A DNA stretch of 64,000 bases from Lentisphaeria bacterium (GCA_041690595.1 JAWLHB010000003.1:62001-126000); one strand, 5' to 3'. Shown: positions 28,843-46,319, counted from the first letter of the stretch. Numbers and translations are program-made. The notes: a model not told the origin generated them from the sequence alone.

Positions 28843-31329
28843 TCACTCATTTCCTTGTGGCACAACTTGCCGATAGATGAAGGGCCGCCGGAAGAGTCCA
28901 CCATTATGGTGCGTGTTATGAATCCGAATAGTCAGCTCATTCCGCCCGGGTCGAACCACTCGCGAAAGGTCCACATCCCACTCGAAGCGATAGTCATTAT
29001 GCCACCACATGTGATGCTGCGGACGGTGCGCCACCAGATAGCCGTTGACGTACAGCCATGCTTCGCTGAAGATTCCCGGAAAGCGCACGTGCAATGCGCC
29101 ATTTGCCTCTCTCGCATCCAACTCCGCCTCCGCCTTGTACCACATGAAGCCCGTGAAGCTCTGCCAGTCGGGATGAAGCACCCCCTGCGCCTGCGGGTAC
29201 AGATCGCTGCGCACCCTCTCCCACTGCGTGATGGGGTAATCCTTTCGCGCTTCCGGCGTCGCATAACGCTCACGATTCGCTTCCCAGTAGCTCAGATCCG
29301 GCGTCTGGCGCGAATAGTCTCTGGCCAGGCCAGTATCGTGTGGATCTCGCCGAAATGCCCACTCCAGCGGCAGCCGCGCGACCAACTGCCCGCGCTTGCC
29401 GTCCGTCAATTCCAGCAGCTCACGGTACTGCTTCACCTCCCCCGGAAACCAGGCGTACCCCGACTCCATCCGCGTGGAGGTGAAGATGCCATTCATGGCA
29501 GTCAACGCCGCGCGCGCAGCCAGCGCCTCCTCGCCAGCCTGGATAGCGGTGGCATAATCCCCATCCGTCGCGGCGGCACGCACCATGGCCGTATACTTGT
29601 CAATGATGACAAATCCATGCTCCGTGAAGGTCATTCGCTCAAGATAGAGCCCTTCATTGCGTGACAACGCGCCGCCAGGACGGGCACGCAGCTCCGCCAC
29701 CGCCGCCTTGGCCTCACCCAACGCGGCGCGCAGTTCTTCCACCAGTGGTGCCGTATAGATCGCCGGAATTGTGTAGAACTCGTGCTCCGTGACAATCGTC
29801 TCCTCCCATGCCCGGTAGATCGCGCTCCAGTAGCGCCGCATGGGCTCGGCTGCAGGCCCGTAGAACGCGGGATAGAACGCGTCCAGCAGCGCCTCCACAT
29901 CCGCATCCGGATCCCACATCAACTGACTGCGCAGGTAGAGATTGAGAAAGATGGTGGCGAACGCCCCCCGGCTCTCTGTGTGCAGCCCCAGAATCCCGGC
30001 ATCGCGATAGTGCTTCACATCCTCCCGGAAGGCCATGTGCGATGGGTTAGGAATGTCCCGCCAGACCAGCATCCCCTGGTCGTAGTCGTAGATCACCACC
30101 CGCCCCTCCATCACCTCCGACCACCGATAAAGAATGGATTTGTACTCCTGCCGCGGCGGCGAGCGCGGGTCGTCCATCCCGTGATTCGGATCGATGTCGA
30201 TCGGCGCCAGGTACGCCACCAGCGGACTCTCCGCGATCATCTGCCGTTGCGGCGGAATCGTCATGTTCACGTAGGCAAAGAAGCCGATGCGCGCCTCGCT
30301 CTCCGGGTACTTCGCAAGCAACAGCCGGCAGACCTGGTTGTACAGCGTCATGAAGTTGTCCGCCAGCGCCTGACCCTGAAAGTACTTGTCTGCAAGATTT
30401 GCCGCCAGCTCCGCGTCGATCTTGGAGTCGGAGCTGTAGGCGCCATCGTTCATGCCAAGCGAGAAACTCGTTCCGGCCGCAAAATCGGCCTCGGCCTTGG
30501 CTGCAACATGTGCGGCTGTTGTCGGCTCCGCAATCGGCACATTAAAGACATTCTTGCCTTCCGGCACCAGCTCTTCCACATACTTGCCCAACGAATGACC
30601 GCAGGGAACGCTCAATTCATTCATGAAGTTGCGACGCTGGAACTCCACCTTGCCGGTATTGTCACCCAGCCAGGCAAAACCGGCAGCGGCGTTGCGCACC
30701 TCAAATGGGGGCGCATAGGCATGCTCGAGCCTGCCAATGGCGAGCCGCCCATGGTTCGGAATGCACTCGCCGAAGTCGGTCGACGTATACCAGCGGCACC
30801 CCCATTCGCGCAGCAACCAGGCCACCGCATAGTAGTGGCTCTCTTCGTTCGTGCCGGCAATATAGACCCGATTCCCCTCCCGCTGCACCGCAATGGCATC
30901 CGCACGCAGCTCCGGATTTCGCTTTGCCACCCGGGCCAACGCCTCCTCCAACTGCCCGCGCCGAGCCGCCAGCGCCTCCTCACCTACCAGCAGCACCGGT
31001 GCCGCCCCGTCCAGCGCGGCTGCGATCTCCTCCCGAGTCGCCGCAATCGCAGGTCTGGCACCCGTCATCAATGCCACGTAATGCGCCAGATCATCAGCCG
31101 CCTGCCGCTCCCAACGGCGTACCACCCGCTTCTTCGCCTGCCGTCCTTCACCTTCCATCGCCGTCACCCCAGCTTCAGGCGAAACCACAATGATGGCATC
31201 CGTCTCCCCGGCCTCCGCCACGACCAGCTCATCCAACCCCACCTGCCCCGCCACCGGACCGCCCGCCACAATCCAATCACCACACATCAGGAACACGATG
31301 GCCATAACGCCCATGCTTTTTGCGATCAT
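28843..31329 (-). CDS. Secreted DUF4838-like protein with C-terminal sugar-binding module
   Basis: Signal peptide; LLREWGCRWY, YAPPFEVR, FFAY and AWLYVNG motifs. Confidence 0.75.
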   Translation of the reverse strand: MIAKSMGVMAIVFLMCGDWIVAGGPVAGQVGLDELVVAEAGETDAIIVVSPEAGVTAMEGEGRQAKKRVVRRWERQAADDLAHYVALMTGARPAIAATREEIAAALDGAAPVLLVGEEALAARRGQLEEALARVAKRNPELRADAIAVQREGNRVYIAGTNEESHYYAVAWLLREWGCRWYTSTDFGECIPNHGRLAIGRLEHAYAPPFEVRNAAAGFAWLGDNTGKVEFQRRNFMNELSVPCGHSLGKYVEELVPEGKNVFNVPIAEPTTAAHVAAKAEADFAAGTSFSLGMNDGAYSSDSKIDAELAANLADKYFQGQALADNFMTLYNQVCRLLLAKYPESEARIGFFAYVNMTIPPQRQMIAESPLVAYLAPIDIDPNHGMDDPRSPPRQEYKSILYRWSEVMEGRVVIYDYDQGMLVWRDIPNPSHMAFREDVKHYRDAGILGLHTESRGAFATIFLNLYLRSQLMWDPDADVEALLDAFYPAFYGPAAEPMRRYWSAIYRAWEETIVTEHEFYTIPAIYTAPLVEELRAALGEAKAAVAELRARPGGALSRNEGLYLERMTFTEHGFVIIDKYTAMVRAAATDGDYATAIQAGEEALAARAALTAMNGIFTSTRMESGYAWFPGEVKQYRELLELTDGKRGQLVARLPLEWAFRRDPHDTGLARDYSRQTPDLSYWEANRERYATPEARKDYPITQWERVRSDLYPQAQGVLHPDWQSFTGFMWYKAEAELDAREANGALHVRFPGIFSEAWLYVNGYLVAHRPQHHMWWHNDYRFEWDVDLSRVVRPGRNELTIRIHNTHHNGGLFRRPFIYRQVVPQGNE

Positions 31330-32484: not shown

Positions 32485-33161
32485 CCTGGAATCACCTTTT
32501 GCAGGCGCATACGCCACGCACACACCGGTTCCTGATCCGCGGCACTATACGTGCCGTCGTGTAACGTGCTGCCGGCGCATCACATCTTCCCTACGCAATG
32601 TTGTTTGACAATATGCTCAGCCGCTTTGCCCATTGTCAAGTAGCTGCAGTTGATCCGCTCGACTCTTCTGTCCACCAGGCAACCATCCTGTTAGTCCTGT
32701 GTGCCTGTCAGAATAGCCAAATCTACTCACCGCATGGACAGGCACCTCGATTCCGACTTTCGTGCCCATCCTGCTCTTCATGTGCCAACCAGCCCATGCT
32801 CGGACCGGGAGCATGTCCCACGTGAGAGGCTTGAGGCGCAAATCCGTCACGCACGTCCCAAAACCATGACACGAACCGGAAATCCCTCCGCTTCCAACTA
32901 CTCAAGGACACGCTGAATGGGCAAGTAGTCCGGCGTATGCGCAGCGCCAGCGACTCACCCGACGGCAACCGCTCTAACGGGATGCAACTGTCGGCGACCC
33001 ACTCGGCGCGCACCCCATCGGTAACGCCTTTTCGGGTCACCCGGTGGACTTGGGAAACTGGCTGCCAATCTCGGTCTCCTCGGGACTCATTGCCACATCT
33101 GCCTGCTATCCCCGGAAACTGCAGGAACACCCCCGGGGGAAAAAATACATTCTTAGACGAG

Positions 33162-33190
33162 TTGTGTTTGCGGATTGGAATGACTATATT
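33162..33190 (+). promoter_or_regulatory. Candidate sigma70 promoter for DUF485-actP
   Basis: TTGTGT-N17-TATATT, about 240 nt upstream of ATG 33429. Confidence 0.45.
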
Positions 33191-33428
33191 GCGCACAATT
33201 CTGGGAAATAGGCTCACCCGCATCGCATGGAACACGTGTAGAATTGCTGGTTGCTCTACTCAGAACAGCCGCTTGGGGAACTTGCGGCGCAGCGGGCGAC
33301 AAGGCAGTGGACCGGGGATCTGGCGGCCGAAAGCCCAAACTACTACGTAGCGACAGAACTCTCTTTGCGGCTCGTTGAAGCATCGGTCCCCGCCCCTGCC
33401 CGAACGAGCATAATTCAAAGGATCCATC

Positions 33429-33701
33429 ATGGGAAGTCTCGACTTCAAAGCCCCGCTCGAACGGGAAAAAGAAGACGCTGACGTTGTTGCCTACAACACG
33501 CGGCGCGGCATGCAGATGTTCATCGTCTACGTACTCTTCTATGGCGGCTTCATGGCGGTCAGCTCATTCTGGCCGCAGGTCATGAGCCTGCCGGTGATCG
33601 GCGGGGTCAACCTCGCCATCGTGAGCGGCTTTGCCCTCATCGTGCTGGCCCTGATACTCGCCCTCATGTATATGAAAATCTGCCGCAAATCCGCCAAGTA
33701 G
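33429..33701 (+). CDS. DUF485 (YjcH-like) small membrane protein
   Basis: 90 aa, two TM helices, directly upstream of a solute symporter. Confidence 0.85.
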   Translation: MGSLDFKAPLEREKEDADVVAYNTRRGMQMFIVYVLFYGGFMAVSSFWPQVMSLPVIGGVNLAIVSGFALIVLALILALMYMKICRKSAK

Positions 33702-33712
33702 GAATACTTACC

Positions 33713-35641
33713 ATGATTCATGATACTTCGTTCATGGCCGTGATGATCTTCCTCTTCTTTGCAGGCACGGTCCTGGGCATCAGCTTCTTTCTAGGGCGCA
33801 AAGCCAAATCGGCTTCCGGCTACTTTGCCGCGGGCGGCGGCATCCACTGGGCGGTCAACGGCATCGCCTTCGCGGGGGACTACCTTTCAGCCGCATCCTT
33901 CCTCGGCATCTGCGGCATGATCGCCTTCTACGGCTATGATGGCTTCCTCTACTCCATCGGCTACCTGGCCGGATGGATCGTCGCGCTCTTCATCATCGCC
34001 GAACCGCTCAAACGCCTCGGACGCTTCACCTTTGCCGACGCGCTCGACAACAAGTACAACTCCCGTGGTATCAAGCTTGCCGCTGCCATCAGCACGCTGG
34101 TGGTCAGCTGCTTCTACCTGATTCCTCAGATGGTGGGCGCCGGAGCTCTGGTTCAGCCATTGCTGGGCTTCCCGCACTATGTCGGCGTGATCGTCGTCGG
34201 CTGCATCGTTACCTTCATCGTCACCACCGCCGGCATGGTCTCCACCACCTGGGTGCAGTTCATCAAGGGCAGCCTGCTCGTCATCCTCTGCACCATCCTG
34301 ACCATCCTGCTCCTCGCCCGCGGTGTCACCACTCAGCCAACAACACCCGATGGCGAGCCACGCTACATCGCCGCCCGGGATGTCACCGAAGCACAACTTC
34401 CCGGTACCATCCTGCCCCAGGAAGGCGACTGGGTCGGAACGCCATTTGTGCAGGTCAGGAGTGAAGAGGGCATCGTCACCGTTTGGCGCCTGGAAGCCGA
34501 TGGCACCTACACCGAAACGCAGTCACTAACCGTCATGCCGGATGGATCCAAGATGGTCAATGGACTGCCCCGCGGCAAGGGCGAAGGCGAAGCCGACCTC
34601 TATCCCGTCGGCTATGCCTCCGAACTCCCTGGCGGTGTCGAGGAGACCGGCCCCGTCAGTCCATGGGAATTCCTCCGCACCATGCAGGACAGCGAGGTCA
34701 TTCTCTGGCGCACCCAGAAGCTTACCGCTGGTGAGGTCACCACCACCGTCTACTATCAGAAGCCCACCTCGGGCGATGATTTCATGGCACCAGGATCCAG
34801 CCCCACCTTCTCCAAGGTCCGCAGTCCAAAGCTCTTCGACAAACTGGACTTCCTCTCCCTCATGCTGGCTCTCTTCTGCGGAACCGCCTCGCTGCCCCAC
34901 ATCCTGATCCGCTATTATACGGTCAAGGATCAGGTCAGCGCGCGTAAGAGCACCGTGGTGGGCATCGCCGCCATCGGCTTTTTCTATGTCCTGACCCTCT
35001 ATCTCGGTCTCGGCGCCATGACCAGTGGTGCTCTCGACGTCACCGACTCCAACATGAGCGCACCACTCCTGGCGCGAAGCTTCGGCGAGCTGCTCTTCGC
35101 GGTGATTTCCGCTATCGCCTTCACCACCGTACTCGGCACCGTCAGCGGCCTCATCATGGCTGCCAGCGGCGCGGTCGCTCATGACCTGATGACCAACGTC
35201 ATGAAGTTCAAGCTCGATGAATTCCAGAAGGTCCGCGCCGCCAAGGGCGCCGCCGTCGCCGTGGGAGCCATCGCCATTGTCCTCGGCATCCTCTTTGCCA
35301 AGATGAACGTCAATTTCCTGGTCGGATGGGCCTTCAACATTGCCGCGTCGGCCAACCTGCCGGCACTCGTCATGTTGCTTTTCTGGAAACGCACCACCAA
35401 GCAGGGCATCACCACGGCTATCATCGTCGGCATGGTCTCCTCCCTGGGCTGGATTCTCCTCAGTGCTCAGGCCTTCAAGGACGTCTATGGACTGGATCCG
35501 GCGAATGCGATCGTTCCATTCAGCCAGCCGGCCATTGTCACCATCCCCCTTGGCTTCCTGGTCCTGATCGTTGTCTCACTGCTAACGCCCAAGCCCATCG
35601 CGCTCACCACCGAGGAACGCGCGGCGGCCGATGCCATGTAA
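33713..35641 (+). CDS. actP: Cation/acetate symporter ActP-like (SSS family)
   Basis: NGIAFAGDYLSAASFLG, YLIPQMVGAG, TTWVQFIKG, GTASLPHIL.RYYTV and AASANLP motifs. Confidence 0.9.
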   Translation: MIHDTSFMAVMIFLFFAGTVLGISFFLGRKAKSASGYFAAGGGIHWAVNGIAFAGDYLSAASFLGICGMIAFYGYDGFLYSIGYLAGWIVALFIIAEPLKRLGRFTFADALDNKYNSRGIKLAAAISTLVVSCFYLIPQMVGAGALVQPLLGFPHYVGVIVVGCIVTFIVTTAGMVSTTWVQFIKGSLLVILCTILTILLLARGVTTQPTTPDGEPRYIAARDVTEAQLPGTILPQEGDWVGTPFVQVRSEEGIVTVWRLEADGTYTETQSLTVMPDGSKMVNGLPRGKGEGEADLYPVGYASELPGGVEETGPVSPWEFLRTMQDSEVILWRTQKLTAGEVTTTVYYQKPTSGDDFMAPGSSPTFSKVRSPKLFDKLDFLSLMLALFCGTASLPHILIRYYTVKDQVSARKSTVVGIAAIGFFYVLTLYLGLGAMTSGALDVTDSNMSAPLLARSFGELLFAVISAIAFTTVLGTVSGLIMAASGAVAHDLMTNVMKFKLDEFQKVRAAKGAAVAVGAIAIVLGILFAKMNVNFLVGWAFNIAASANLPALVMLLFWKRTTKQGITTAIIVGMVSSLGWILLSAQAFKDVYGLDPANAIVPFSQPAIVTIPLGFLVLIVVSLLTPKPIALTTEERAAADAM

Positions 35642-35650
35642 TGGAGACGA

Positions 35651-36430
35651 TCATACGCTCGGATCGACCGGACAGCGGAGGAGTCTACCTTCGGCGGTAT
35701 CCCACAAGGTCAACATGTGGCCGGGCGTTCCCAGATCGTCGCTGACCGCTTGGAAGTGCACACCCGCTATCGTCACCGCGTGATAGCGATGAAAGTGGCC
35801 GAACACCCAGGCTTTGGGCCGGTATGACAAACCGTCCCAGAGCCTGGCAAGTTCGCTCTCCCCGCAGTCATCCGGCGGCCCCGAATCGAATCCGGCCCCG
35901 TCGACATGAAGTGCCACCCCGGGTGCATGCTCCGTCGACGCAGTCATCCCGATACCCAGTCGGCTCGGGCAGGAATGCGTCACCAGCAGCTCCGGACGGC
36001 TCCGGTTGAACGCCGCTATCGCCGCTTCGCGCTGCCGCCGCGTTATATAGTTCGGACTGTGCCGAAGCAGCGCGTGATGCTGCGGCCGATCGACATTCAG
36101 CGCGCCCCCGAGAAATCCCACCCTGCTGCCGCCGATTGTCACTACCGAACCGCGCGGCTGGTAGAAAAGGTTCGCGGTCGCTTGCCAAGTCGCCGTCAGC
36201 CCCGCTCTGTACATCTTGCCCAGCCAGATATGATCCTCATGATTGCCGTCGATTACGTAAAGCGGTACCGGGTAACGCAACTCCGCGCCGCGCGCCATCG
36301 TCTGCGGATAAAAGCCGAAGTCCCCTACCTGAATCGCAGCCTCGATCCGATAATCCACCTGCACCTGCCGGAGGAGGGCGACCAGCGCATCGTGCCGCCC
36401 ATGCACATCCCCCACAATCAACACGCGCAT
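35651..36430 (-). CDS. Calcineurin-like metallophosphoesterase
   Basis: GDVHG, VGDFG, GNHED, VTHSCP and FGHFH motifs; GGGAG RBS; 15 bp after the DUF294 stop. Confidence 0.9.
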   Translation of the reverse strand: MRVLIVGDVHGRHDALVALLRQVQVDYRIEAAIQVGDFGFYPQTMARGAELRYPVPLYVIDGNHEDHIWLGKMYRAGLTATWQATANLFYQPRGSVVTIGGSRVGFLGGALNVDRPQHHALLRHSPNYITRRQREAAIAAFNRSRPELLVTHSCPSRLGIGMTASTEHAPGVALHVDGAGFDSGPPDDCGESELARLWDGLSYRPKAWVFGHFHRYHAVTIAGVHFQAVSDDLGTPGHMLTLWDTAEGRLLRCPVDPSV

Positions 36431-36445
36431 GATAGCTCCCTTGAA

Positions 36446-38932
36446 TCAGGTGGTCCGGGCAAAATCGGTTCGCAGGCGAGCCTGAAAGACAGTGATATCC
36501 GCGAAGACCTTCTTCAGCATCGAACGCTCCAGCTGGGTCAACTCATCCAGGCGCAGATAATTGTCGGCAGCTTCACCTCGAGCCACCTGCTCCGACTGAT
36601 GCGTCAGTCGCATCTGCATCAGCACGCTGTAGGCCTGGCTCAGTTCGTCATGACTGGATGGAATCAGTACACCAAGATCGCGCAGCCGACCCAGCCGCTC
36701 CAGCGTATTCGTCTCCACAAGATGATGCTGCAGGGCATAGATCCGCGCAAAGTTCACCAGCGGTATGACCGCGCTCTTGATGTTGAACGCATCCGCGTGT
36801 TCCCCGCCGCTCTCCAGCTGAATGCTTCCAAAAAAACCACGCGGAGGGCGAAACTGCAGCGTACTCTGCGCCAGATGAAAAAGAAAAACTGGACGATCCG
36901 GCGCCAGCAACGCCTGCCAGTGTTGCCGCAGATCGTTCACATGCGTCGCATCACCATGCACGCAACGCAGATCGAAGAAAATGTTCACGTCCAGCAGCTC
37001 CTGTGGCTCCGCCGCCAACACGCATTCCGTGAAATACTCACGCCAGCGCGACAGCGGCTGACACCACTTCGGGTTGCTCGCCATCGTTTCGCCTTGGCAG
37101 CGACGATAGCCCACACGCTCCAGACCACTGCAGACCGCCTCCCCAAGGCGAAGAAAATAGCCCTGCACCGCCTCTGCATCCTCCGCCGGCACATCCGCGT
37201 AAACCAAGGCATTGTCCTGGTCGGTGGCCAGTGTCTGCTCTCCCCGTGCCTCGCTGCCCAGCGCGAGAAAGGAGTACACTGCCGGCGGCTGCCCAAGTTC
37301 AGCCTCGGCCATCGCCAGCAGTCGCACCGTGATTGCGTCCGCCACACTGCTCATGATCCGGGTCACGTGTTCTATCCGTGTCCCGCTGTCAAGCAGCGTC
37401 TTCACCAGCAGGGGCAGCTTGCCCCGGCAGGCACGCAACTCCTCGACGCTCTTCCCATGCTCGATCTCATTCAGGAGCAGACCGATCGCATGACTCTGCG
37501 CATGCAGAATCTCTGTGCCCGAAAGCAACCCCTGCGCCGTCCCCCGCTCATCCGTCACCACCAGGTGCTGTACACCCCGCTCCTGCATCAGCCGGGCCGC
37601 CTCGAACAGCAGCGCATGCTCCGCGATCCGCACCAGCGGCGCGCTCATGATCCCCGCCACCGCCTCCCCTGCATCACGGCCGACCGACAGCACCCGATTC
37701 CGCAGATCGCTGTCCGTGACGATTCCTATCGGCTGACCATCAGGCCCCTTGACCAGAATGGCGCTCGCCTTCGCCCGCGCCATCGCCGCGGCAGCCTGCC
37801 GTATCGGCGTATGCAGCTCGCAGCTCACCGTGGAAAGCGGCGAGGCCTTGACTGGCCGGGTCGTCAGCGGCAGGGTCGTCTGCAGTTCAGCCAGCAGTCG
37901 CGCCACCGTCTCCTCGCTCTGCCGATGGGCAGTGACATCCTTCAGGGAGAGAACCTGCCCCGTGCGCTCCCCGATCCGCACCGGTGCCGAGGCAAGCTGC
38001 ACCTCGCTCGTCGTGCCATTCTTGGCAATCAGCAGCGCATGCTCCTCCGAGAGTGGCTCCAGAATCCTGTCCATCGTCAGATCCGCCAACTCCTCCTCCG
38101 TGTATCCGAGTCGACTCAGCAACGTCTGATTCGCATAGACCGGCCGCTCCTGCAGCACCATCAGCACCCCCTCCGTCGTCCCCTGCACCAGCAGGCGATA
38201 CTTCTCCTCCGACTCCCGCAGCGCCGCCACCGCCAGCGCCCGGCGCCGGTCCAGCTCGAAGCCATGACGGACCACGTATGCCAGCAATCCCGCCATCACC
38301 ACCAGAATCCCCATCGCGATCTGCATCACCTGCCGAGTGATCTCCCGAATCTGCCCCCGCACATCCTCCACGTAGATTCCCGTCCCGATCAGCCAGTCCC
38401 ACGGCTCGAACCGCTTCACATACGAAAGCTTCGGCACCACCCGCTCTTCATCATCCTGCCACTGCCACAGGTAATCGACATACCCCTCGCCCCTGATCGC
38501 CGACACCTCCACAAACTTCACGAAGAGCCGCTTCCCCGCTGGATCCGCATAGTCCCGAAGATCCTGCCCCTCCATCTCTGGACGATACGGATGCATGATC
38601 ATCCGCGGAGTCTCATCGAAGAGCCAGAAGTAATCCTTGCGCTCATCCCCATAGCGCAGCTCGCGGATACGGCTGATCGCCGCCTGCTGCGCCTCGGCGC
38701 GAGTCAGGCTCCCTGCCACTTCCTGCGCATGCAGAGCCGCAAGATCGCTCCACGCCGTCTGCGTCAGCTCACGCAGCGTCTCCTTCTTAAGCTCCATCAT
38801 ATGACGCTTCATCGTCGGCAGGATGACCACAAAGATCAGCCCCAGAAACAGCCCCAGCGTCAGCACTGGAGGTAGCACAAACGCCAGGTAACGCCCCCTC
38901 ATCCGCGCGGTTGGCGGCACCTCCTCCTTCAT
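36446..38932 (-). CDS. Membrane protein TM-sCache_2-TM-PAS-CBS pair-DUF294 nucleotidyltransferase-DUF294_C
   Basis: Cache: YFW..MIMHP..GYVDYLW..KLSYV..WDWLIGTGIY. CBS: GIVTDSDLR. NTase: LGSEARGEQTLATDQDN and FFDLR. RBS GGAGAGGAG before ATG 38932. Confidence 0.9.
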   Translation of the reverse strand: MKEEVPPTARMRGRYLAFVLPPVLTLGLFLGLIFVVILPTMKRHMMELKKETLRELTQTAWSDLAALHAQEVAGSLTRAEAQQAAISRIRELRYGDERKDYFWLFDETPRMIMHPYRPEMEGQDLRDYADPAGKRLFVKFVEVSAIRGEGYVDYLWQWQDDEERVVPKLSYVKRFEPWDWLIGTGIYVEDVRGQIREITRQVMQIAMGILVVMAGLLAYVVRHGFELDRRRALAVAALRESEEKYRLLVQGTTEGVLMVLQERPVYANQTLLSRLGYTEEELADLTMDRILEPLSEEHALLIAKNGTTSEVQLASAPVRIGERTGQVLSLKDVTAHRQSEETVARLLAELQTTLPLTTRPVKASPLSTVSCELHTPIRQAAAAMARAKASAILVKGPDGQPIGIVTDSDLRNRVLSVGRDAGEAVAGIMSAPLVRIAEHALLFEAARLMQERGVQHLVVTDERGTAQGLLSGTEILHAQSHAIGLLLNEIEHGKSVEELRACRGKLPLLVKTLLDSGTRIEHVTRIMSSVADAITVRLLAMAEAELGQPPAVYSFLALGSEARGEQTLATDQDNALVYADVPAEDAEAVQGYFLRLGEAVCSGLERVGYRRCQGETMASNPKWCQPLSRWREYFTECVLAAEPQELLDVNIFFDLRCVHGDATHVNDLRQHWQALLAPDRPVFLFHLAQSTLQFRPPRGFFGSIQLESGGEHADAFNIKSAVIPLVNFARIYALQHHLVETNTLERLGRLRDLGVLIPSSHDELSQAYSVLMQMRLTHQSEQVARGEAADNYLRLDELTQLERSMLKKVFADITVFQARLRTDFARTT

Positions 38933-39278
38933 TCTCCTCTCCCTTGGCTGAAGCAGCGCTGTCATCCTCCAAGATGCCCTCCCGATCCCCAATCGTCAAG
39001 GTGAGCACAACCCTGCTTTCCCAAAGCCCCTCTCCGAGCCGCGGCCGATGTCCCCAAGATCCCTGTCATCCTGCCCACTGACCTCAATTTCGCCAGCGTC
39101 AACCGGCCCGCCAACTGGAGCCGCTCTCCGAGCCACGCAGCCTCAATGTGGCAATCCCCACCCGGCCGTTGCCCGGGTATTTCTCTCTTCATAAGTCCAA
39201 ATCCAATGCCATACCCCCGCGCGAGCTCAATTCCACAGTAACCGGCGTCTCCTTTTGCCACGGGGCTACGTCCCATAG

Positions 39279-39307
39279 CCCAGGGTTGCCCATCGGGCTA
39301 CCCTGGG
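39279..39307. repeat. REP-like palindrome
   Basis: CCCAGGGTTGCCC-ATC-GGGCTACCCTGGG, a 13-bp stem with one T-T mismatch. Confidence 0.7.
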
Positions 39308-39415
39308 TATACTGCCCGCCCACGCAGTTGCGTCCACGCCGTCGCCCCCTCTCCGTTTGAGCTCGGTTTCATTAAGGCCGTCGCCTCAAACGTCGCTGCC
39401 CTTGCGCCTCGCACG

Positions 39416-39542
39416 TTCTTTGCGCTCTCTGCGCTCTTTGCGGTTAATCCTCTGCCTGCTTCCAGTCCTATCCGTCCTATGCTCCTGTCCTGCTGCGCAC
39501 CGTGTGCGTCCGTGTGCGTCCGTGTGCGTCCGTGTGCGTCCG
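39416..39542. repeat. Short tandem repeats (9-bp and 10-bp units)
   Basis: TTCTTTGCG-CTCTCTGCG-CTCTTTGCG at 39416-39442; GTCCTATCC-GTCCTATGC at 39465-39482; four exact copies of CGTGTGCGTC at 39501-39540. Confidence 0.9.
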
Positions 39543-39565
39543 CAAGATCCGCAAATCGCGTCCGA

Positions 39566-42331
39566 TCAGTCGCTCGCGTCGACCATCTGCAGGCCGATGG
39601 GGAGCGAGTCGCCGAGGATCTGGGCCCCTTCCTCACGGCTCTCGTGAATGCGATGAACCAGCCGCTCCTGCCATTGGGAGGGCGCCTGGTGATCCGCCAG
39701 GAAACTCTGGCATTCGTGCTGGAGATCCGGGGGAAGATCGAGCGACCGTTCCCCCGTCTGGGCGCCGATCATGGAGATGGCAAAGAGACGCATGCGAGCC
39801 GCCTGAGCCGGCGGTGTCGTATCGAGCAGCGGGCGAAGCCACTGGGCAGCGGCATCCGCCGGAAGAACATAATTCAGGGGCGCGTGAAAGAGATGACGAG
39901 CACCCAATCGTGCCAGCACCCAATATTCGTAGGGCTCGAGCCGGGGAAGTCGCTCCACCAGCAAGGTGCCGATGCGACGCTTGCGCTTGGACGGCAACTG
40001 CTCCAGTGAACCAAGGCACCGCCACATCTCCTGCTTGGCCTGATCCCCTTCACGGATCTTGCCCCGATAGTTCCCCTTCGGAATGAGGATCTTTTCGAGC
40101 ATGTCGTCAATCGCAATCTGGTGACCCGATTTCAGCCCCGACGCAACCCGCCGCCAGAAGACCCACCATTCCGCGATGACCTGCGGTTGCCGGTCGTGCT
40201 GCACACCCTCGAACCAGAGCTTCCAGAGTTCACGCATCCGCAGCGAGTCCGCGGCATCGCCAAAGCCGGGTCGCATGCAGAAGCCGGTCAGATTCAGCCA
40301 CCGAGCTTCGTGCTGAGGTGTCCGAGCCCGCTCCCCGGTAAGCTCAAGGCAGCTGTCCGCCAGCTCGCGCAGGATCGAGATGGACCACTCGTCGCGCGTG
40401 AGATCAAGCGTCTGCTCGAGGCTGTTGACGAGCTTGGGAAGGCGCTCGATCTCCTTCAGGAAGATGGCGTGCAGGCTCTCGCGCGCTGCCGCGGTGCTGG
40501 CGGCATCGACGACAATCTGCGCCGGAGCATCGGCTGCGGCATCTCCAGCGGAGGGGCGAAGGTCGAAATGCAGCGGCCACCGATGCTCCGTCTGCAACGA
40601 CTCCAGAACGACTTCCAGCGTGCCGATCTCCGTCAGTTGGGTCGCGACTCTCACGTCGATTGCGCGTTTCTCCCCCTTACCGAAGCGCAGCACGGAGACC
40701 AGCGGCGCAACTTGCGAGAGGTCGTCCTGTGCCTCTTCGCTCAGCAGTTCCCCCGGCGCATCATGCAGACGAGTCGCGCTGCTGTGAAGCTCGAACAGCA
40801 CCTTCTCATTGGTCTGCAGGCGATAGTTGCCCGGAACTTCGACCCGGGTGCTCTCATCCGTGTCGCGTGCCATGACGCAGACAAAGCGGCTCGCGGCATC
40901 CGGTGCCGCCACCTTGATAAAGTAGGCGCGGGAGATGCCGCCGCGCACCTTGACCCCGGTGCCGCGGCGAACCCGCCCATAGTAGGCAGCGCCGATGGCG
41001 ACAGCGAGGGAATAATCTTCGCCAGCCAGTTCGTCAGGCGCGGGTTGCCCAGGAAACCAGCTCTCCAGCGCCGCGAGCACCCGAAGCCGGGCAATCCTCG
41101 ACTTCATGCTGCCGCCATTGAAAAGTATCTTGTGGGGATAGAGCAACTCACTGCCCGGGAGCCCGTCCCCCCCCTTGGCGACATGGCTGGCATACCGCAG
41201 GAACTGCAGCAGATGAACCGTCACCGCGGGCTCCTGCGCATACGGCAGCCCCATCTGTCGGATTCCCGTCGCGCCTCGCCGGGGCGGCGGTGCATCGGCC
41301 GGCACAAGCGGATAAAAACCACTCTCCAGCAGCTCGTTGACCTGCTCGCGGGTGAGCTTGGCCTTGCGCACATTCTGCAGCACCGAGCTTCCCTTGGAGA
41401 GCAGCGTAATGTCCACCGCCCCCTCCCCGCCTTCCAGGATCTGCTCCTTCGCGGCACGCGCCCGCTGGCAGAGCATCGCCCACTCGCCCGTGGGAAGCTT
41501 CGTCTTCCACTCCTGTTCAAGACCTCGGGCGATGGCAATGTCGATGTTGTCGCCGCCCAGCAGCAGGTGATCGCCAACCGCAAAGCGATGCAGCCCCCCC
41601 TGCTCATCCATCTCGATGAACGAAAAGTCCGTCGTCCCTCCACCGACATCCACCACGAGAACCCGCTCACCCGGCGCAAGCTTCTCCCGCCAGCTCTCCT
41701 CGTGACGGTTGAGCCACGCGTAAAAGGCCGCAAGCGGCTCCTCCAGCAGCGTCAGCTCCTTTAGCCCCGCGCGGCGCGCAGCGTCAAGGGTTAGCTCCCG
41801 AGCGGTCTCGTCAAAGCTGGCCGGAATCGTCACCACCGTCTGCTGTTCGGCCATGATGCAGGGTGAGCCGTCCCGATCGCGGACGCTCCCAAATCGCTGA
41901 TCCCAGGCCGATCGCAGATGGCGAAGAAAGGTGGCGGTGACCTCGATTGGCGACACCATGCGTGGCCCGAGGTCGCTGCCCCACGGCAGAATCGGCTTGG
42001 ACCGGTCGATGCCCGCGTGCGCCAGCCAGGACTTGGCGGAAACTATCTGCCGCGACGGACTCGATGCCCCGTGATCGCGGGCAAAGACACCGACCGTCAA
42101 TTCGGGCGCCTCGTCCCAGGGAAGCCGAAGCGCCCCCTCTGGAAGCTCTTCGCGAGCCGGCAGATAACAGAAGGACGGTAGAAGATCTCGTTCGGCAAGC
42201 TCACCCACCGCCACGATCTGCGGGATCGGAAACTTGTGGATCGTCAGATCCGGCGAATACGTATCGACATAGAAGGCCGCAATGTTGGTCGTCCCAAGGT
42301 CGATGCCGATGATGTAACGGGAATCATGCAT
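39566..42331 (-). CDS. Atypical Hsp70-family protein with C-terminal DUF3731-like extension
   Basis: Start moved to MHDSRY. IGIDLGTTN, TIPASFD, EEPLAA, DVGGGTTD and LGGDNID motifs; C-terminal WLNLTGFCMRPGFG..WWVFWRRVASGL. Confidence 0.88.
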   Translation of the reverse strand: MHDSRYIIGIDLGTTNIAAFYVDTYSPDLTIHKFPIPQIVAVGELAERDLLPSFCYLPAREELPEGALRLPWDEAPELTVGVFARDHGASSPSRQIVSAKSWLAHAGIDRSKPILPWGSDLGPRMVSPIEVTATFLRHLRSAWDQRFGSVRDRDGSPCIMAEQQTVVTIPASFDETARELTLDAARRAGLKELTLLEEPLAAFYAWLNRHEESWREKLAPGERVLVVDVGGGTTDFSFIEMDEQGGLHRFAVGDHLLLGGDNIDIAIARGLEQEWKTKLPTGEWAMLCQRARAAKEQILEGGEGAVDITLLSKGSSVLQNVRKAKLTREQVNELLESGFYPLVPADAPPPRRGATGIRQMGLPYAQEPAVTVHLLQFLRYASHVAKGGDGLPGSELLYPHKILFNGGSMKSRIARLRVLAALESWFPGQPAPDELAGEDYSLAVAIGAAYYGRVRRGTGVKVRGGISRAYFIKVAAPDAASRFVCVMARDTDESTRVEVPGNYRLQTNEKVLFELHSSATRLHDAPGELLSEEAQDDLSQVAPLVSVLRFGKGEKRAIDVRVATQLTEIGTLEVVLESLQTEHRWPLHFDLRPSAGDAAADAPAQIVVDAASTAAARESLHAIFLKEIERLPKLVNSLEQTLDLTRDEWSISILRELADSCLELTGERARTPQHEARWLNLTGFCMRPGFGDAADSLRMRELWKLWFEGVQHDRQPQVIAEWWVFWRRVASGLKSGHQIAIDDMLEKILIPKGNYRGKIREGDQAKQEMWRCLGSLEQLPSKRKRRIGTLLVERLPRLEPYEYWVLARLGARHLFHAPLNYVLPADAAAQWLRPLLDTTPPAQAARMRLFAISMIGAQTGERSLDLPPDLQHECQSFLADHQAPSQWQERLVHRIHESREEGAQILGDSLPIGLQMVDASD

Positions 42332-42335
42332 GCAA

Positions 42336-44207
42336 TCACGCTCCGGCACTGCCGCCGGGCTCCTGCTCGGCGTGGGCGGTGAGCGTGTCGCCAGGGCCGC
42401 TTGCGCCGATCGCCCGCAGCTCGTACTCCAGCTTCCAGCGGCGGTCGCCACCATCTTCGAGGCACCAGAGCTGAAGCGTCCCGATCTCCGAGAGCACGGC
42501 TTTCAACGTCACCGGAACCAGCGTCCCCGGCGGCGTGCGCTCGTCGTCAACCGACAGGCTCGCCGAAAGCGCGGGCAGTTCGTGAAGCTCCTCGTTGCCG
42601 GCATCCGGCAGGATGTCGCCGATGCGATCATCCTTGCGGATCGTCGACGCAAAGAACTGGAACTCAGTCGTCTCCCCAACCACCAGGCCAAGGCCAGTGA
42701 AGGGGATATGCTCGTCCGTCCCTTCTTCCATGGCGAAGGCAACGACGCACAACGCCTCCATCGGCGGTGAAAAACCAGGGACGGCAGGCATCGAAGGCTC
42801 GATCCCCACATAATACGAGTGAGGACTCCCCGCCTTGATCCGGATCGAGTTGCCCCGCCGCACATTTCCGTACCAGCAGGCGCCAAGTGCAACCGCAAGG
42901 TCCGGTTTCGTGCCCGCCATGACCGTGGCTTCGCCGCCCGTGCTCCAGTTCCGCATCACCTCGATAATCCGCTCCTGCAGCACCGTCGCCTTGGTCACGC
43001 CACCATTGAAAAGGATCGCCGACGGCAGCCGCCTCTCGCCATCGGCCCCCGCCGCGCAGTGGCGCGAGAGAAAAGCGGCAAGGTGGCGGGTGACCGCCGG
43101 ATCGGACGCATAGTCGAGGCCAAACGCCCGCAGTCCCCCGCGGCGCCCTTCCTCCGGATGCTCGTCCAGCCCCACAACCGGAAAGAATCCATCGACAAGT
43201 ATCTGCTGGAGCTCCGCAAACGAGAGTTCCGTGGTGATGGCGCCGCCAATGACGCTGCTGCCGCGACCAAGCACCGTCAGTTTCTGGGGAGGCGCATCCG
43301 GCGAGGCACAGAGAAGCTCCTTCGCTTCCCGGCAGGCATGGGTGAGCCCCGCAATCTGGTAGTTGTCGAGGCGCAGGTTGCGCTCGCGCTGAAGCTTCGC
43401 CGCAACCGCATACGCGAGGGTGAGATCCATGTTGTCGCCGCCAAGGAGAATATGATCCCCTACCGCAACACGCTGCAGTGCGAGATTGCCCTCCTCGTCG
43501 ATGACCTCGATCAGACTGAAGTCGGTCGTCCCGCCGCCAAGATCGCAGACCAGCACGAGATCTCCCGCATCGACCTCATCACGCCAACCTTCCCCCCGAT
43601 CCTGCAGCCACGCATAGAACGCGGCCTGCGGCTCCTCCAATAGCGTGACGTGAAGATTGGCCCGCTGCGCAGCCTTCACCGTCAGTTCCCGCGCGACCGC
43701 ATCGAAGGAAGCGGGAACGGTGAGGACAATCTCCTGCTGCTCGAAGGCCAGCTCGGGATCCGCCCCGGCAAACTGATGGTTCCAGCCATCGCGAATGTGC
43801 TCGATTAGCCGCTGCGCCGCATCCACCGGCGAGAGCTGCCGGTCTGGATTGTTTCGGTTCCACGGCAGGATGCGAGCAAGTCGATCGACATTCGCGGCGC
43901 ACAGCCACGACTTGGCGGAGCTGATGGTCTTGCCGGGAAGCGTGGCTGCCTGCTTGCGCGCAAAGGCGCCGACGGCAAAGTTGCGGCCGGTCGCCCAGGG
44001 CAGGTCGAGTGCCCCTTCCGCCACCTCCTGTTCATCCGGAAGATAGAGAAAAGAAGGAAGCGTCTCGCGGGCCTGTCGCTCGCCGGCCTGGGTGATCTGC
44101 GGCACGGCAAAGACCTTCGGATCCGCCCCCTCGACCGATGAATCGAGATAGGCGACGGCGGTATTCGTGGTGCCAAGGTCGATACCGATGATGTACCTGG
44201 ATGCCAT
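42336..44207 (-). CDS. Atypical Hsp70-family protein
   Basis: IGIDLGTTN, TVPASFD, EEPQAA, DLGGGTTD, LGGDNMD and LFNGG motifs; lacks a DnaK-type substrate-binding tail. Confidence 0.9.
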   Translation of the reverse strand: MASRYIIGIDLGTTNTAVAYLDSSVEGADPKVFAVPQITQAGERQARETLPSFLYLPDEQEVAEGALDLPWATGRNFAVGAFARKQAATLPGKTISSAKSWLCAANVDRLARILPWNRNNPDRQLSPVDAAQRLIEHIRDGWNHQFAGADPELAFEQQEIVLTVPASFDAVARELTVKAAQRANLHVTLLEEPQAAFYAWLQDRGEGWRDEVDAGDLVLVCDLGGGTTDFSLIEVIDEEGNLALQRVAVGDHILLGGDNMDLTLAYAVAAKLQRERNLRLDNYQIAGLTHACREAKELLCASPDAPPQKLTVLGRGSSVIGGAITTELSFAELQQILVDGFFPVVGLDEHPEEGRRGGLRAFGLDYASDPAVTRHLAAFLSRHCAAGADGERRLPSAILFNGGVTKATVLQERIIEVMRNWSTGGEATVMAGTKPDLAVALGACWYGNVRRGNSIRIKAGSPHSYYVGIEPSMPAVPGFSPPMEALCVVAFAMEEGTDEHIPFTGLGLVVGETTEFQFFASTIRKDDRIGDILPDAGNEELHELPALSASLSVDDERTPPGTLVPVTLKAVLSEIGTLQLWCLEDGGDRRWKLEYELRAIGASGPGDTLTAHAEQEPGGSAGA

Positions 44208-44231
44208 GGATCAAGCTCCTGTAAACGCGCG

Positions 44232-44753
44232 TCAGATTTCGACTTCGGCCGGCTGAATGATCGCCTCGTTGATCTTGCCGGTGCGCTCGGGGAGATTGAG
44301 CCTGGCCGCCTTCCAGCCCTGGTGACGCACGGCCCCTCTGTAAGGCGCCTCGTCCGGCACGTTGCCGCTCAGCTTGTAGAGTGTCGGATCGAGCGGCGCA
44401 GGCACCTGCACGCTCTCCCCTTCAGCCGTATCCACCACCCGCTGGATGCCGAAATACTCGCTCAGTGCCTTGGCGCAGTCCTTGTGTATCTGCCGCACCG
44501 CCGCGCCGATCTGATCGTCGGCATAGCCATCCAGATTCTCCTGAAGGAAGTCTACAAGACGCCCCTCGCGCTGAAGAAGCAGGAGCGCGTAGACTGCCCC
44601 CTCGTGAAAACGGTCGGGTCGTGGCTCCGGCTTAGGAGCGGCGCTGAGCCGTGCGATCCTGTCGCGCAGCTCGTTCACCTGCTCGCCCGGCACCAGCTCG
44701 CCACCGCGCAAAACCTGCCAGAACGCCTTGAACGCGTCAATGATTCTTGCCAT
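44232..44753 (-). CDS. DUF2760-like protein with GrpE-like C-terminus
   Basis: LLLLQREGRLVDFLQE, DQIGAAVRQIH and HQGW...IIQPAEVEI motifs. Confidence 0.8.
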   Translation of the reverse strand: MARIIDAFKAFWQVLRGGELVPGEQVNELRDRIARLSAAPKPEPRPDRFHEGAVYALLLLQREGRLVDFLQENLDGYADDQIGAAVRQIHKDCAKALSEYFGIQRVVDTAEGESVQVPAPLDPTLYKLSGNVPDEAPYRGAVRHQGWKAARLNLPERTGKINEAIIQPAEVEI

Positions 44754-44891: not shown

Positions 44892-46319
44892 ATGAAAGAT
44901 GTGACTGCCGCCATTCTCATACATAGCGACCGGCTCCTCATCGCTCGCCGGCGCCCCGATACTCGCCATGGAAATGACTGGGAATTCCCGGGCGGCAAGG
45001 TCGAAGCGGGTGAGAGCCCCCAGGACTGCCTCTGCCGGGAGATGCTCGAAGAATTCGGCGTCACCGTCGAAGTCGGCGACTTCTTCGCCACCAGCGAATA
45101 TCGGTACGATCATGGTTGCATACGGCTGCTCGCCTATCGCACCCGTTGGATTGCCGGTGCCTTCCAGCTGCGCGTTCACGACGAGCTGCGCTGGATCGCC
45201 CTCGATGAATTGGACGCTTTCGTCTTCCTGCCGGCGGATCGACCGCTGGTGACACTATTGAAATCCATCTTGAGGAATGAGAAGATGCCACAGACAGAAG
45301 ATCGCTTGTCCCCGTCGGCCAACCACCATTACCTGATGAATAACCAGACGCCTCGCCTGACCTTCACCGGCGGTGACGTCCGCGAATGGCAGCAGGCACT
45401 GCGTCCCGCCGTCGCCCAGTGCCTCGGCATGGGCAACATGCCCACCACACGCGTTGACCTGGCGCCACGCTCCATCTGGAAGCGCCGGCATGAATTCGGC
45501 ACCATCGAAAAGATCATCTTCACCAGCGAAGCTTTCGCCGATGTCCCGGCCTATCTCTGCCTGCCGAAGGATGTCGCCCCGCCCTACCCCACCTTCATCT
45601 GCCTACAGGGCCATTCCACCGGCGCCCACGTCTCGATCGCCGTTCAGCGGGATGATGAAACGCTCCCATTGGAGGTGGCGGGTGACCGCGACTTCGGCAT
45701 CGGCTGCATGAAGCGCGGCATGGCGGCACTCTGTATCGAGCAGCGCTCGTTCGGCGCTCGCCGCGAGCTGCGCCTTGACGACTCCAACTGCGCGGGCTGT
45801 CACCAGGCAACCGTGCATGCACTGATGCTCGGCCGCACCCTGATCGGCGAACGCGTCTACGATGTCGACCGCGGCATCGACTACCTCGAGAGCCGAGGGG
45901 ACATCGACATGACCTCTCTGGGTGTCATGGGCAACTCCGGCGGCGGGACCATCAGCCTCTTCGCCGCTGCCCTCCTGCCCCGCCTGCGGGCCGCCATGCC
46001 TTCCTGCTACTTCTGCACCTTTGCCGACTCCGTCATGTCCATCTATCACTGCCTGGACAACTACGCCCCCGGCCTCCTGCTGGTCGCCGAAATGGCGGAT
46101 GTCCTCGGCTGCTTCGCCCCCAGACCCGTGACCATCGTTGCCGGTGTCGAAGACGCCATCTTCCCCATCGCCGGCGTCCGCAAGGCCTTTGCCCAGCTCC
46201 AGAAGATCTACGCCGCCGCCGGTGCTCCCGAGAACTGCCGTCTCGTCGTCGGACCGGAAGGTCACCGCTTCTATGCCGAGCAGGGATGGTCCGCCATGCT
46301 CCCCATGCTGGGGCGCTGA
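44892..46319 (+). CDS. MutT-like Nudix domain fused in frame to an alpha/beta hydrolase
   Basis: Nudix box GGKVEAGESPQDCLCREMLEEFG; esterase GNSGGG plus Asp and His (EGHRF); internal ATG at 45285. Confidence 0.8.
   Translation: MKDVTAAILIHSDRLLIARRRPDTRHGNDWEFPGGKVEAGESPQDCLCREMLEEFGVTVEVGDFFATSEYRYDHGCIRLLAYRTRWIAGAFQLRVHDELRWIALDELDAFVFLPADRPLVTLLKSILRNEKMPQTEDRLSPSANHHYLMNNQTPRLTFTGGDVREWQQALRPAVAQCLGMGNMPTTRVDLAPRSIWKRRHEFGTIEKIIFTSEAFADVPAYLCLPKDVAPPYPTFICLQGHSTGAHVSIAVQRDDETLPLEVAGDRDFGIGCMKRGMAALCIEQRSFGARRELRLDDSNCAGCHQATVHALMLGRTLIGERVYDVDRGIDYLESRGDIDMTSLGVMGNSGGGTISLFAAALLPRLRAAMPSCYFCTFADSVMSIYHCLDNYAPGLLLVAEMADVLGCFAPRPVTIVAGVEDAIFPIAGVRKAFAQLQKIYAAAGAPENCRLVVGPEGHRFYAEQGWSAMLPMLGR

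Follow-up and report, generated by a model that had tools for sequence, protein, structure and literature searches.

A candidate carboxylate-sensing receptor nucleotidyltransferase and its phosphoesterase partner beside an ActP-type transporter gene in a Lentisphaeria bacterium

The closest described relatives of the system reported here come from Pseudomonas, where the CBS protein PP_0354 and the RNase_T protein PP_0353 of P. putida are encoded in an operon controlled by MxtR/ErdR (Henriquez et al., PMC9927547). According to that report, deletion of PP_0353 impairs growth on pyruvate, as does deletion of actP-I, neither the PP_0353 nor the PP_0354 deletion affects growth on acetate, and the PP_0354 deletion is also free of a succinate defect. 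A 2026 preprint lists the Pseudomonas DUF294 genes among those most dependent on MxtR/ErdR, suggests protein modification, and calls their function open (10.64898/2026.09.07.749794). We examined 64,000 nucleotides of DNA from a Lentisphaeria bacterium (GCA_041690595.1, JAWLHB010000003.1:62001-126000; this whole stretch is called the window, and positions are counted from its first letter), which encode a membrane-bound DUF294 protein with a periplasmic sCache_2 sensor domain, a metallophosphoesterase (MPE), and, facing them, a DUF485 protein and an ActP-type transporter. A first-pass annotation of this DNA had stated that no characterisation of such proteins was known. The statement stands for biochemistry in the literature searched, which also held no description of Cache-type DUF294 receptors, but not for genetics, as the version with a cyclic nucleoside monophosphate (cNMP)-binding domain and an RNase_T partner has been studied in Pseudomonas (PMC9927547).

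The locus consists of two convergent gene pairs, with the following features.

33429..33701, plus strand: DUF485 (YjcH-like) small membrane protein of 90 amino acids with two predicted transmembrane (TM) segments (PF04341, E 5.5e-12; hydropathy)
33713..35641, plus strand: ActP/MctC-like sodium:solute symporter (SSF) of 642 amino acids (PF00474, E 1e-67)
34322..34837, plus strand: insert of about 170 residues in ActP (residues 204-375), in the TM6-TM7 loop and predicted to be periplasmic, which splits the SSF match
35642..35650, no strand: 9-bp spacer between the convergent actP and MPE stop codons
35651..36430, minus strand: calcineurin-like MPE of 259 amino acids, the proposed eraser (PF00149, E 1.5e-12)
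36431..36445, minus strand: 15-bp gap containing GGGAG, from the receptor stop to the MPE start
36446..38932, minus strand: receptor nucleotidyltransferase (NTase) of 828 amino acids, in the order TM1, sCache_2, TM2, PAS, CBS pair, DUF294, DUF294_C
38330..38800, minus strand: periplasmic sCache_2 domain, residues 45-201 (PF17200, E 4e-40)
38024..38218, minus strand: PAS domain, residues 239-303 (TIGR00229)
37490..37831, minus strand: CBS pair, residues ~368-481 (PF00571, two stretches, E 4e-16; CBS proteins in the PDB match too)
37004..37417, minus strand: DUF294 Pol-beta-type NTase core, residues 506-643 (PF03445, E 8.5e-47)
37214-37258, minus strand: G559-S560...D571-x-D573 motif
36461..36889, minus strand: DUF294_C helical domain, residues 682-824 (PF10335, E 4e-44)

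The first-pass annotation had described an 828-residue protein with a TM-flanked sCache_2 sensor, a PAS domain, a CBS pair and an intact Pol-beta motif, followed 15 bp later by an MPE with all of its metal motifs, both converging on DUF485-actP with stops 9 bp apart. Pfam, NCBIfam (TIGR00229), hydropathy and the motif GSEARGEQTLATDQD bore out the receptor architecture, and the arrangement of the four genes was confirmed at the coordinates listed above. The stop codon of actP ends at 35641 and that of the MPE gene occupies 35651-35653; the receptor stop codon occupies 36446-36448 and the MPE begins with an ATG at 36430, and the 15-bp gap with its GGGAG implies that receptor and MPE share one operon. 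The receptor ATG at 38932 is preceded by GGAGAGGAGA and agrees with the N-termini of homologues, and an alternative TTG start at 38992 would give a protein of 848 amino acids. The DUF485 gene lies directly 5' of actP with an 11-bp gap, and DUF485 homologues adjoin an ActP gene in 18 of the 80 loci surveyed below. The source genome (8.1 Mb in 99 contigs) carries this one DUF294 gene only. A search of sequencing runs listed no RNA run and returned four DNA rows with 6-9% of the words. The ~630-bp gap upstream of the receptor gene contains a perfect 10-bp tandem repeat, CCGTGTGCGT, in 4.3 copies (39500-39542) and a second repeat with a 9-bp unit in 2.9 copies (39417-39442).

Compared with PP_0354/PP_0353 of P. 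putida KT2440 and the PA3233/PA3232 cluster of P. aeruginosa, the window receptor has the same output portion (CBS pair, DUF294 and DUF294_C), and both systems have an adjoining phosphoesterase gene and a linkage to actP, acs or DUF4212-SSF genes. Of the two proteins, that of Pseudomonas is soluble and combines a cNMP-binding input with a DEDDh partner, whereas that of the window sits in the membrane and combines Cache-PAS with Metallophos, and the Cache/PAS types form a separate clade in the NTase tree described below. The window system is a membrane-receptor variant, with a presumed MPE or PHP eraser, of this known DUF294/exonuclease module. MxtR/ErdR (CrbS/CrbR) likewise senses or responds to acetate and acts on the same uptake and activation genes (acs, actP; PMC9927547), but it is a histidine kinase with a response regulator, it works transcriptionally, and no homology to the window system was found beyond a general signalling role.

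The input half of the receptor was examined domain by domain. The sCache_2 domain is flanked by two hydrophobic segments (residues 19-37 and 202-220, by hydropathy). The PAS domain was recognized by TIGR00229 at 39.9 bits (NCBIfam cut-off 22.9), with the Pfam PAS models staying under their own cut-offs, and the CBS pair, matched by PF00571 in two stretches, lies directly N-terminal to the NTase. The cNMP-binding domain (PF00027) had no match in the window receptor, where sCache_2 and PAS occupy its place; it was matched in 49 of the 50 scanned open reading frames (ORFs) that lack a PHP or Cache N-terminus, the exception being the short ORF of locus L043. When the Cache domain was compared with the PDB, 4k08 (Adeh_3718; E 9e-35) and 5g4y (PscD; E 3e-32) were matched over the whole domain. 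According to Brewster et al. (PMC5062169), 4k08 contains acetate and 5g4z is the PscD domain with propionate, PscD binds glycolate, acetate, propionate and pyruvate, and its ligand contacts are Y90, W92, H103, F126, Y143, W145 and K156, which are identical in PscD, McpP and Adeh_3718. Alignment to 5g4y places these contacts at Y101, W103, H114, F137, Y154, W156 and K168 of the window receptor, and all seven are identical. The same residues are invariant in an alignment of 13 receptor sequences and are present in 29 of 29 Cache-DUF294 receptors, a set made up of the window, 23 loci and five genome regions (L007, whose N-terminus is off the contig, and L083, L086 and L089 were left out of this comparison). 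Because the seven-residue pocket is identical across the receptors, acetate or another C2/C3 carboxylate is strongly predicted as the ligand, and the initial guess of a carboxylate is strengthened. The receptor shares this domain and its seven contacts with PscD (5g4y/5g4z), McpP and Adeh_3718; their sCache_2 domains feed methyl-accepting chemotaxis modules, in contrast to the NTase output of the window receptor. Two Cache-DUF294 proteins from one genus (L087, 7634-10243, and L088, 7794-10403) show no CBS match; their longest ORF is extended N-terminally by ~185 residues that match no family, and this extension may reflect an over-long start call.

The output half matched PF03445 at 158.9 bits (cut-off 21) and PF10335 at 150.4 bits (cut-off 22.5). 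In an alignment of 74 DUF294 family sequences, the Pol-beta motif G-S-x10-D-x-D and its third acidic residue (D654) are conserved: G559, S560, R563, D571 and D654 do not vary, and D573 is present in at least 90%. An AlphaFold2 model of residues 490-828, built with 74 sequences (pLDDT 92.1, pTM 0.90), was searched against the PDB with Foldseek. Only four matches reached E<=0.001, namely the N-terminal part of GlnE (1v4a), DrrA (6yx5_B; E 2.8e-8, TM-score 0.67) and the C-terminal part of GlnE (3k7d, two chains), with E-values of 1e-8 to 5e-8, TM-scores of 0.66-0.70 and 354-374 aligned columns that include DUF294_C. The next rows were aminoglycoside nucleotidyltransferases (E ~1e-2, TM-score ~0.3), and RNA-specific or oligonucleotide-forming NTases appeared far down the list with low probability. 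The GlnE and GlnD Pfam families had no match to the receptor at E<=0.01. Because GlnE and DrrA are its sole strong fold matches, the DUF294 module would work like a GlnE/DrrA-type enzyme that lies outside the GlnE/GlnD sequence families. A related view of the helical portion was taken by Anantharaman et al. (PMC3710099), who grouped DUF294_C with the helical domains of GlnD and GlnE in one Pfam clan.

GlnE is the best structural match of the window output module (1v4a and 3k7d, E ~1e-8), and the match to DrrA/SidM, the Legionella Rab AMPylase reversed by SidD, is about as strong. GlnE and GlnD follow a writer-plus-remover logic, with control of a transporter through GlnD-GlnK-AmtB, and DrrA is a writer with a separate eraser of another fold. 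The window system differs from GlnE/GlnD in having an extracellular ligand sensor as input; the remover, which is an HD domain in GlnD, would be the separate MPE here and a PHP or DEDDh protein in relatives, and no PII-like gene was seen at the window locus. DrrA, in turn, is a secreted effector that acts on host GTPases, lacks sensor domains and comes from an unrelated context. Tandem or closely spaced DUF294 paralogue pairs occur in L040, L047, L052, L064 and L068; where this was scanned, a single RNase_T gene follows the second paralogue.

We then surveyed the neighbourhoods of related genes. Relatives were collected by a pattern scan with one genome per species, which gave 252 confirmed cases, and the best 80 of the 252 were taken as loci; in addition, an even set of 201 genomes was drawn from the phylum of the window. 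For the phosphoesterase partner, 74 of the 80 DUF294 loci could be evaluated. The six left unjudged were L023 (upstream ORF unscanned), L025 (frameshifted), L031 and L072 (cut by contig ends), L038 (broken) and L065 (partial). In L002, L004 and L006 the MPE gene was dropped by the gene caller, which weights GC content at third codon positions, and tblastn was relied on instead. The receptor architecture itself was found again in at least 120 protein clusters, with identities of 58-71%, which is beyond chance. A phosphoesterase is adjacent or fused in 64 of the 74 evaluable loci, distributed as follows.

RNase_T exonuclease, 38 of 74 loci: 35 directly downstream, and 3 forming the C-terminus of a long protein encoded upstream
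PHP, 13 of 74 loci: all fused in frame at the N-terminus of the NTase protein
Metallophos, 12 of 74 loci: 10 downstream and homologous to the window MPE, and 2 upstream (L013, L037)
DHH-DHHA1-CBS, 1 of 74 loci: upstream
No partner seen, 10 of 74 loci

The conservation of the MPE and actP neighbours had been named beforehand as one of the points on which the first-pass proposal should stand or fall. The proposal survived this check, as did each of its other parts that was open to computation. An MPE lies directly downstream in 10 of the 11 close loci, whose genomes carry the labels of six phyla. Among eight further Cache-type genomes of the phylum, it lies directly downstream in three and a PHP fusion occurs in three, and across all Cache-type loci that could be evaluated a phosphoesterase is present in 22 of 24. 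An SSF/ActP gene is found nearby in 20 of the 24 Cache-type loci, and beside the receptor in all eight further genomes. The MPE family (56-73% identity) has diverged to a similar degree as the receptor family (58-71%), and many members share contigs. The upstream Metallophos proteins of L013 and L037 are only 14-20% identical to the window MPE. In L046 and L071 a Metallophos gene (17-18% identical to the window MPE) is convergent with the RNase_T gene and was not counted as a partner. A search for longer MPE proteins gave three, none of them with DUF294, so that no MPE-DUF294 fusion was seen, which is weak evidence. In L017, L020 and L032 the RNase_T domain forms the C-terminus of an upstream protein of 595-782 amino acids whose N-terminal part has no Pfam match. 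The DHH-DHHA1-CBS gene of L022 (6533-7831) lies upstream of the DUF294 gene, where the sister locus L032 has its RNase_T protein, and is possibly a fourth fold. In two loci of Desulfobacteraceae type (L017, 7419-8519; L065, 10675-11775), the gene immediately after cNMP-DUF294 is spore-photoproduct-lyase-like.

A maximum-likelihood tree of 74 NTase modules placed all Cache/PAS-type enzymes in one 28-row clade (support 99/98). This clade contains three smaller ones: the 13 PHP fusions (99/96); 12 rows (100/99) made up of those with an MPE gene downstream together with L012, which lacks an MPE; and L013, L037 and L014 (99/92). The first-pass suggestion that Cache replaces the cNMP input and a calcineurin-like enzyme replaces the exonuclease is upheld by this tree, with one Cache/PAS clade and partner types that track its subclades. 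Partner type follows the NTase clade across several labelled phyla, and the fold has switched only a few times. Because a phosphodiesterase partner was kept while its fold was replaced, the NTase and the phosphodiesterase bear the signature of a functional couple; the 13 in-frame fusions agree with this. The Bacteroidales locus L014 (5743-8968), a Cache-DUF294 locus without a phosphoesterase, has, upstream, an ORF with DUF4212, a gene of the SSF family and one for a TPR protein.

The window MPE matched PF00149 at 48.8 bits (cut-off 21.5). Its metal motifs D-x-H, G-D, G-N-H-E, H and G-H-x-H are all present, and the eight metal residues (D8, H10, D37, N63, H64, H152, H212 and H214) are invariant in 69 homologues. 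The model (pLDDT 83.8) has a standard calcineurin-like fold. Its sequence had no match in the PDB under E 0.1. By structure, the top match was the RNA lariat-debranching enzyme Dbr1 (Foldseek E 1e-9; VIA Z-score 18.5, root-mean-square deviation 3.2, 221 residues aligned), followed by aq_1956 (17.5), TT1561 (16.9) and GpdQ (16.7), and Dbr1 reached only E 0.27 by sequence. The 259-residue model covers residues 7-264 of the Dbr1 chain of ~350 residues, the remainder being without a counterpart. Because several families score near Dbr1, the substrate of the MPE cannot be read from its fold.

The window ActP falls under the NCBIfam equivalog cut-offs, with 413 bits for MctC (cut-off 670), 393 for PRK09395 (750) and 321 for TIGR02711 (1099), and the insert splits these matches; the ActP neighbours of close receptor homologues are 77-81% identical to it. 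The insert is placed outside the cell by positive-inside counting and belongs to no known family. Used as a query, it matched 17 ActPs beside Cache-DUF294 genes (17 of the 24 Cache-type loci) and had no match in the SSF genes beside cNMP-type DUF294 genes. Among the 201 phylum genomes, 22 have a DUF294 gene, 9 of these of the Cache type, and 9 have the ActP insert; insert and Cache-DUF294 occur together in 7, the receptor without the insert in G065 and G026, and the insert without the receptor in G169 and G153. No statistic is attached to this co-occurrence because the sampled genomes are related. A complex prediction for the Cache domain (residues 40-205) with the ActP insert (200-382) gave a score of 0.00, which speaks neither way, and a feature search of a protein atlas with the insert gave best scores of 0.75-0.79, below the useful level. 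Genes for porin-like outer-membrane proteins (BBP2_2, Porin_O_P and OprD matches) lie in or beside three loci (L002, 14575-15915; L011, 7670-8863; L087, 10311-11504).

Based on these observations, we propose that the receptor and the MPE are an acetate-gated writer and eraser pair that tunes monocarboxylate uptake, with protein nucleotidylation as the chemistry, a reading that we consider evenly poised between right and wrong. The receptor would be a transmembrane one-component system in which binding of acetate or another C2/C3 carboxylate to the periplasmic sCache_2 domain is signalled through TM2 and PAS to the cytoplasmic DUF294 nucleotidyltransferase, with the CBS pair probably adding an adenine-nucleotide (energy) input. 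DUF294 would most likely move AMP or UMP from a nucleoside triphosphate to a protein hydroxyl, like GlnE and DrrA, and the co-transcribed MPE would hydrolyse the resulting phosphodiester. Together, the two may form a fast reversible switch on monocarboxylate uptake through the adjacent DUF485-ActP, by a logic that resembles GlnD/PII control of AmtB. The Pseudomonas pattern, in which loss of the presumed eraser mimics loss of ActP-I and loss of the presumed writer is without reported effect, fits, in our own reading and not that of its authors, a pair whose unerased product inhibits uptake. Among the possible chemistries, protein nucleotidylation appears most likely, with a small nucleotide signal as its main rival.

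Several points weigh against this proposal. The literature searched contains no biochemical study of any DUF294 protein, and the Pseudomonas phenotypes are mild and were seen on pyruvate and propionate rather than on acetate. Two of the 24 Cache-type loci (L012 and L014) and two of the 8 further phylum genomes (G092 and G089) showed no phosphoesterase next to the receptor gene, and no SSF gene was present in the examined DNA of 4 of the 24 (L010, L012, L018 and L026, where the contig of L026 carries no upstream DNA). The receptor operon of the window converges on actP and is not co-transcribed with it. In addition, the partners resemble nucleic-acid enzymes (PolC/DnaQ, TrpH/RNase AM and Dbr1), and a nucleotide or RNA substrate may fit them at least as well as a protein-nucleoside monophosphate (NMP) adduct. 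The modelled fold relations of the NTase favour a protein acceptor, and the resemblance of the partners to nucleic-acid enzymes favours one that is a nucleotide or RNA.

The alternative that best survives, which we regard as possible though on balance unlikely, is that DUF294 is the synthase of a nucleotide signal, joining nucleotides or adding an NMP to a nucleotide cofactor upon acetate binding, and that the partner degrades the signal. Each of the four partner folds comes from a family in which some members cleave phosphodiesters of nucleotides. The fused PHP domains are nearest to TrpH/RNase AM-like phosphoesterases (2yb1, 3e0f and the 5'-3' exoribonuclease 7ug9; E 1e-18 to 4e-24), the typical RNase_T partners to the proofreading exonuclease domains of PolC and DnaQ, for the one DHH partner the matches are dinucleotide phosphodiesterases and NrnA, and the top match of the MPE, Dbr1, scores within about one Z unit of aq_1956. 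The 13 PHP fusions would combine synthase and hydrolase in one protein, an arrangement that is common among second-messenger enzymes. Such a synthase is harder to reconcile with the NTase model, which has no close match to CD-NTases, OAS, or poly(A)- or CCA-adding enzymes and whose sole strong structural relatives modify proteins, and no receptor or effector for a signal of this kind was found in the loci. A narrower idea, that all partner folds come from nanoRNase or pAp-phosphatase families, was dropped because the RNase_T partners are nearest to PolC/DnaQ and the DHH case is a single locus.

A more sweeping version, which we advance as doubtful, would treat DUF294 in general either as the synthase of an undiscovered nucleotide signal or as the writer of a new protein NMP mark on the transporter complex. 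Acetate would be the trigger in the Cache types, four unrelated phosphodiesterase folds would serve as erasers, the insert-bearing ActP would act as a co-sensor with the Cache domain, and the whole would be a carbon-side counterpart of GlnD/GlnK/AmtB.

Less probable still is remodelling of RNA ends, in which the NTase would extend an RNA (transporter mRNA, a small RNA or tRNA) at its 3' end without a template, the nuclease would trim the added nucleotides, and transporter expression would be set post-transcriptionally. Two published speculations can be cited for it. COG2905 genes are reported to be cofit with DUF4212 symporter subunits, and the same authors speculate that COG2905 is needed for symporter expression (Price et al., bioRxiv 10.1101/072470); because COG2905 is termed an 'RNAse T domain protein' in that text, it is ambiguous whether the NTase or the RNase_T gene is meant. 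For PP_0353, degradation of mRNA has been speculated by Henriquez et al. (PMC9927547). The partners resemble DnaQ, RNase AM and Dbr1, which act on RNA or DNA, and between the convergent stops (9 bp apart) no terminator-like site turned up in a promoter and terminator scan whose hit numbers were at chance level. Set against this, the NTase has no fold similarity to RNA-specific NTases, an Rfam search of 32500-39700 found no family (its one match, at E 0.49, is far under the gathering score), and an RNA target would leave unexplained why the association with one ActP subfamily is conserved across phyla.

A chance or loose neighbourhood, with the MPE an unrelated housekeeping phosphatase and the receptor regulating something besides the transporter, could appeal to the convergent genes with no shared operon and to the loci that lack one or other neighbour, but it is very improbable and close to refuted by the neighbourhood survey, given the MPE directly downstream in nearly all close loci across six labelled phyla, the in-frame fusions, a partner type that tracks the NTase tree, and Cache-DUF294 in 7 of the 9 genomes with the ActP insert compared with 9 of 201 overall.

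Other genes of the window were recorded as well. Beyond the upstream gap of the receptor gene, three consecutive genes on the minus strand (39566-44753) encode a 962-residue HSP70-like protein with DUF3731 ('DNA-K related'), a 623-residue HSP70-like protein and a DUF2760 protein. They are followed on the plus strand (44892-46319) by a gene for a 475-residue protein with an N-terminal NUDIX domain and an alpha/beta-hydrolase part (Abhydrolase_7, Peptidase_S9 and AXE1 matches). On the other side, another ORF of 828 amino acids (28843-31329, minus strand), with DUF4838 and weakly matching Glyco_hydro_2_N, has the length of the receptor by coincidence and is not related to it.

DUF294/COG2905 proteins are widespread, with many phyla represented among the 80 loci. 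The Cache types supply what the cNMP types lack, namely a confidently predicted and cheap external trigger (acetate or propionate), and their locus is a compact operon of presumed writer and eraser beside the transporter that they likely control. Because of this predicted trigger and the compact operon by a likely target transporter, the function of DUF294 becomes directly testable. If the proposed acetate-gated nucleotidylation is true, nucleotidyl transfer would become one of the few output chemistries of bacterial receptors that span the membrane, and the uptake of short-chain fatty acids would be under post-translational control. The pairing of an acetate/propionate-type pocket with an AMPylase-like enzyme in place of a kinase points to an as yet unstudied mode of transmembrane signalling.

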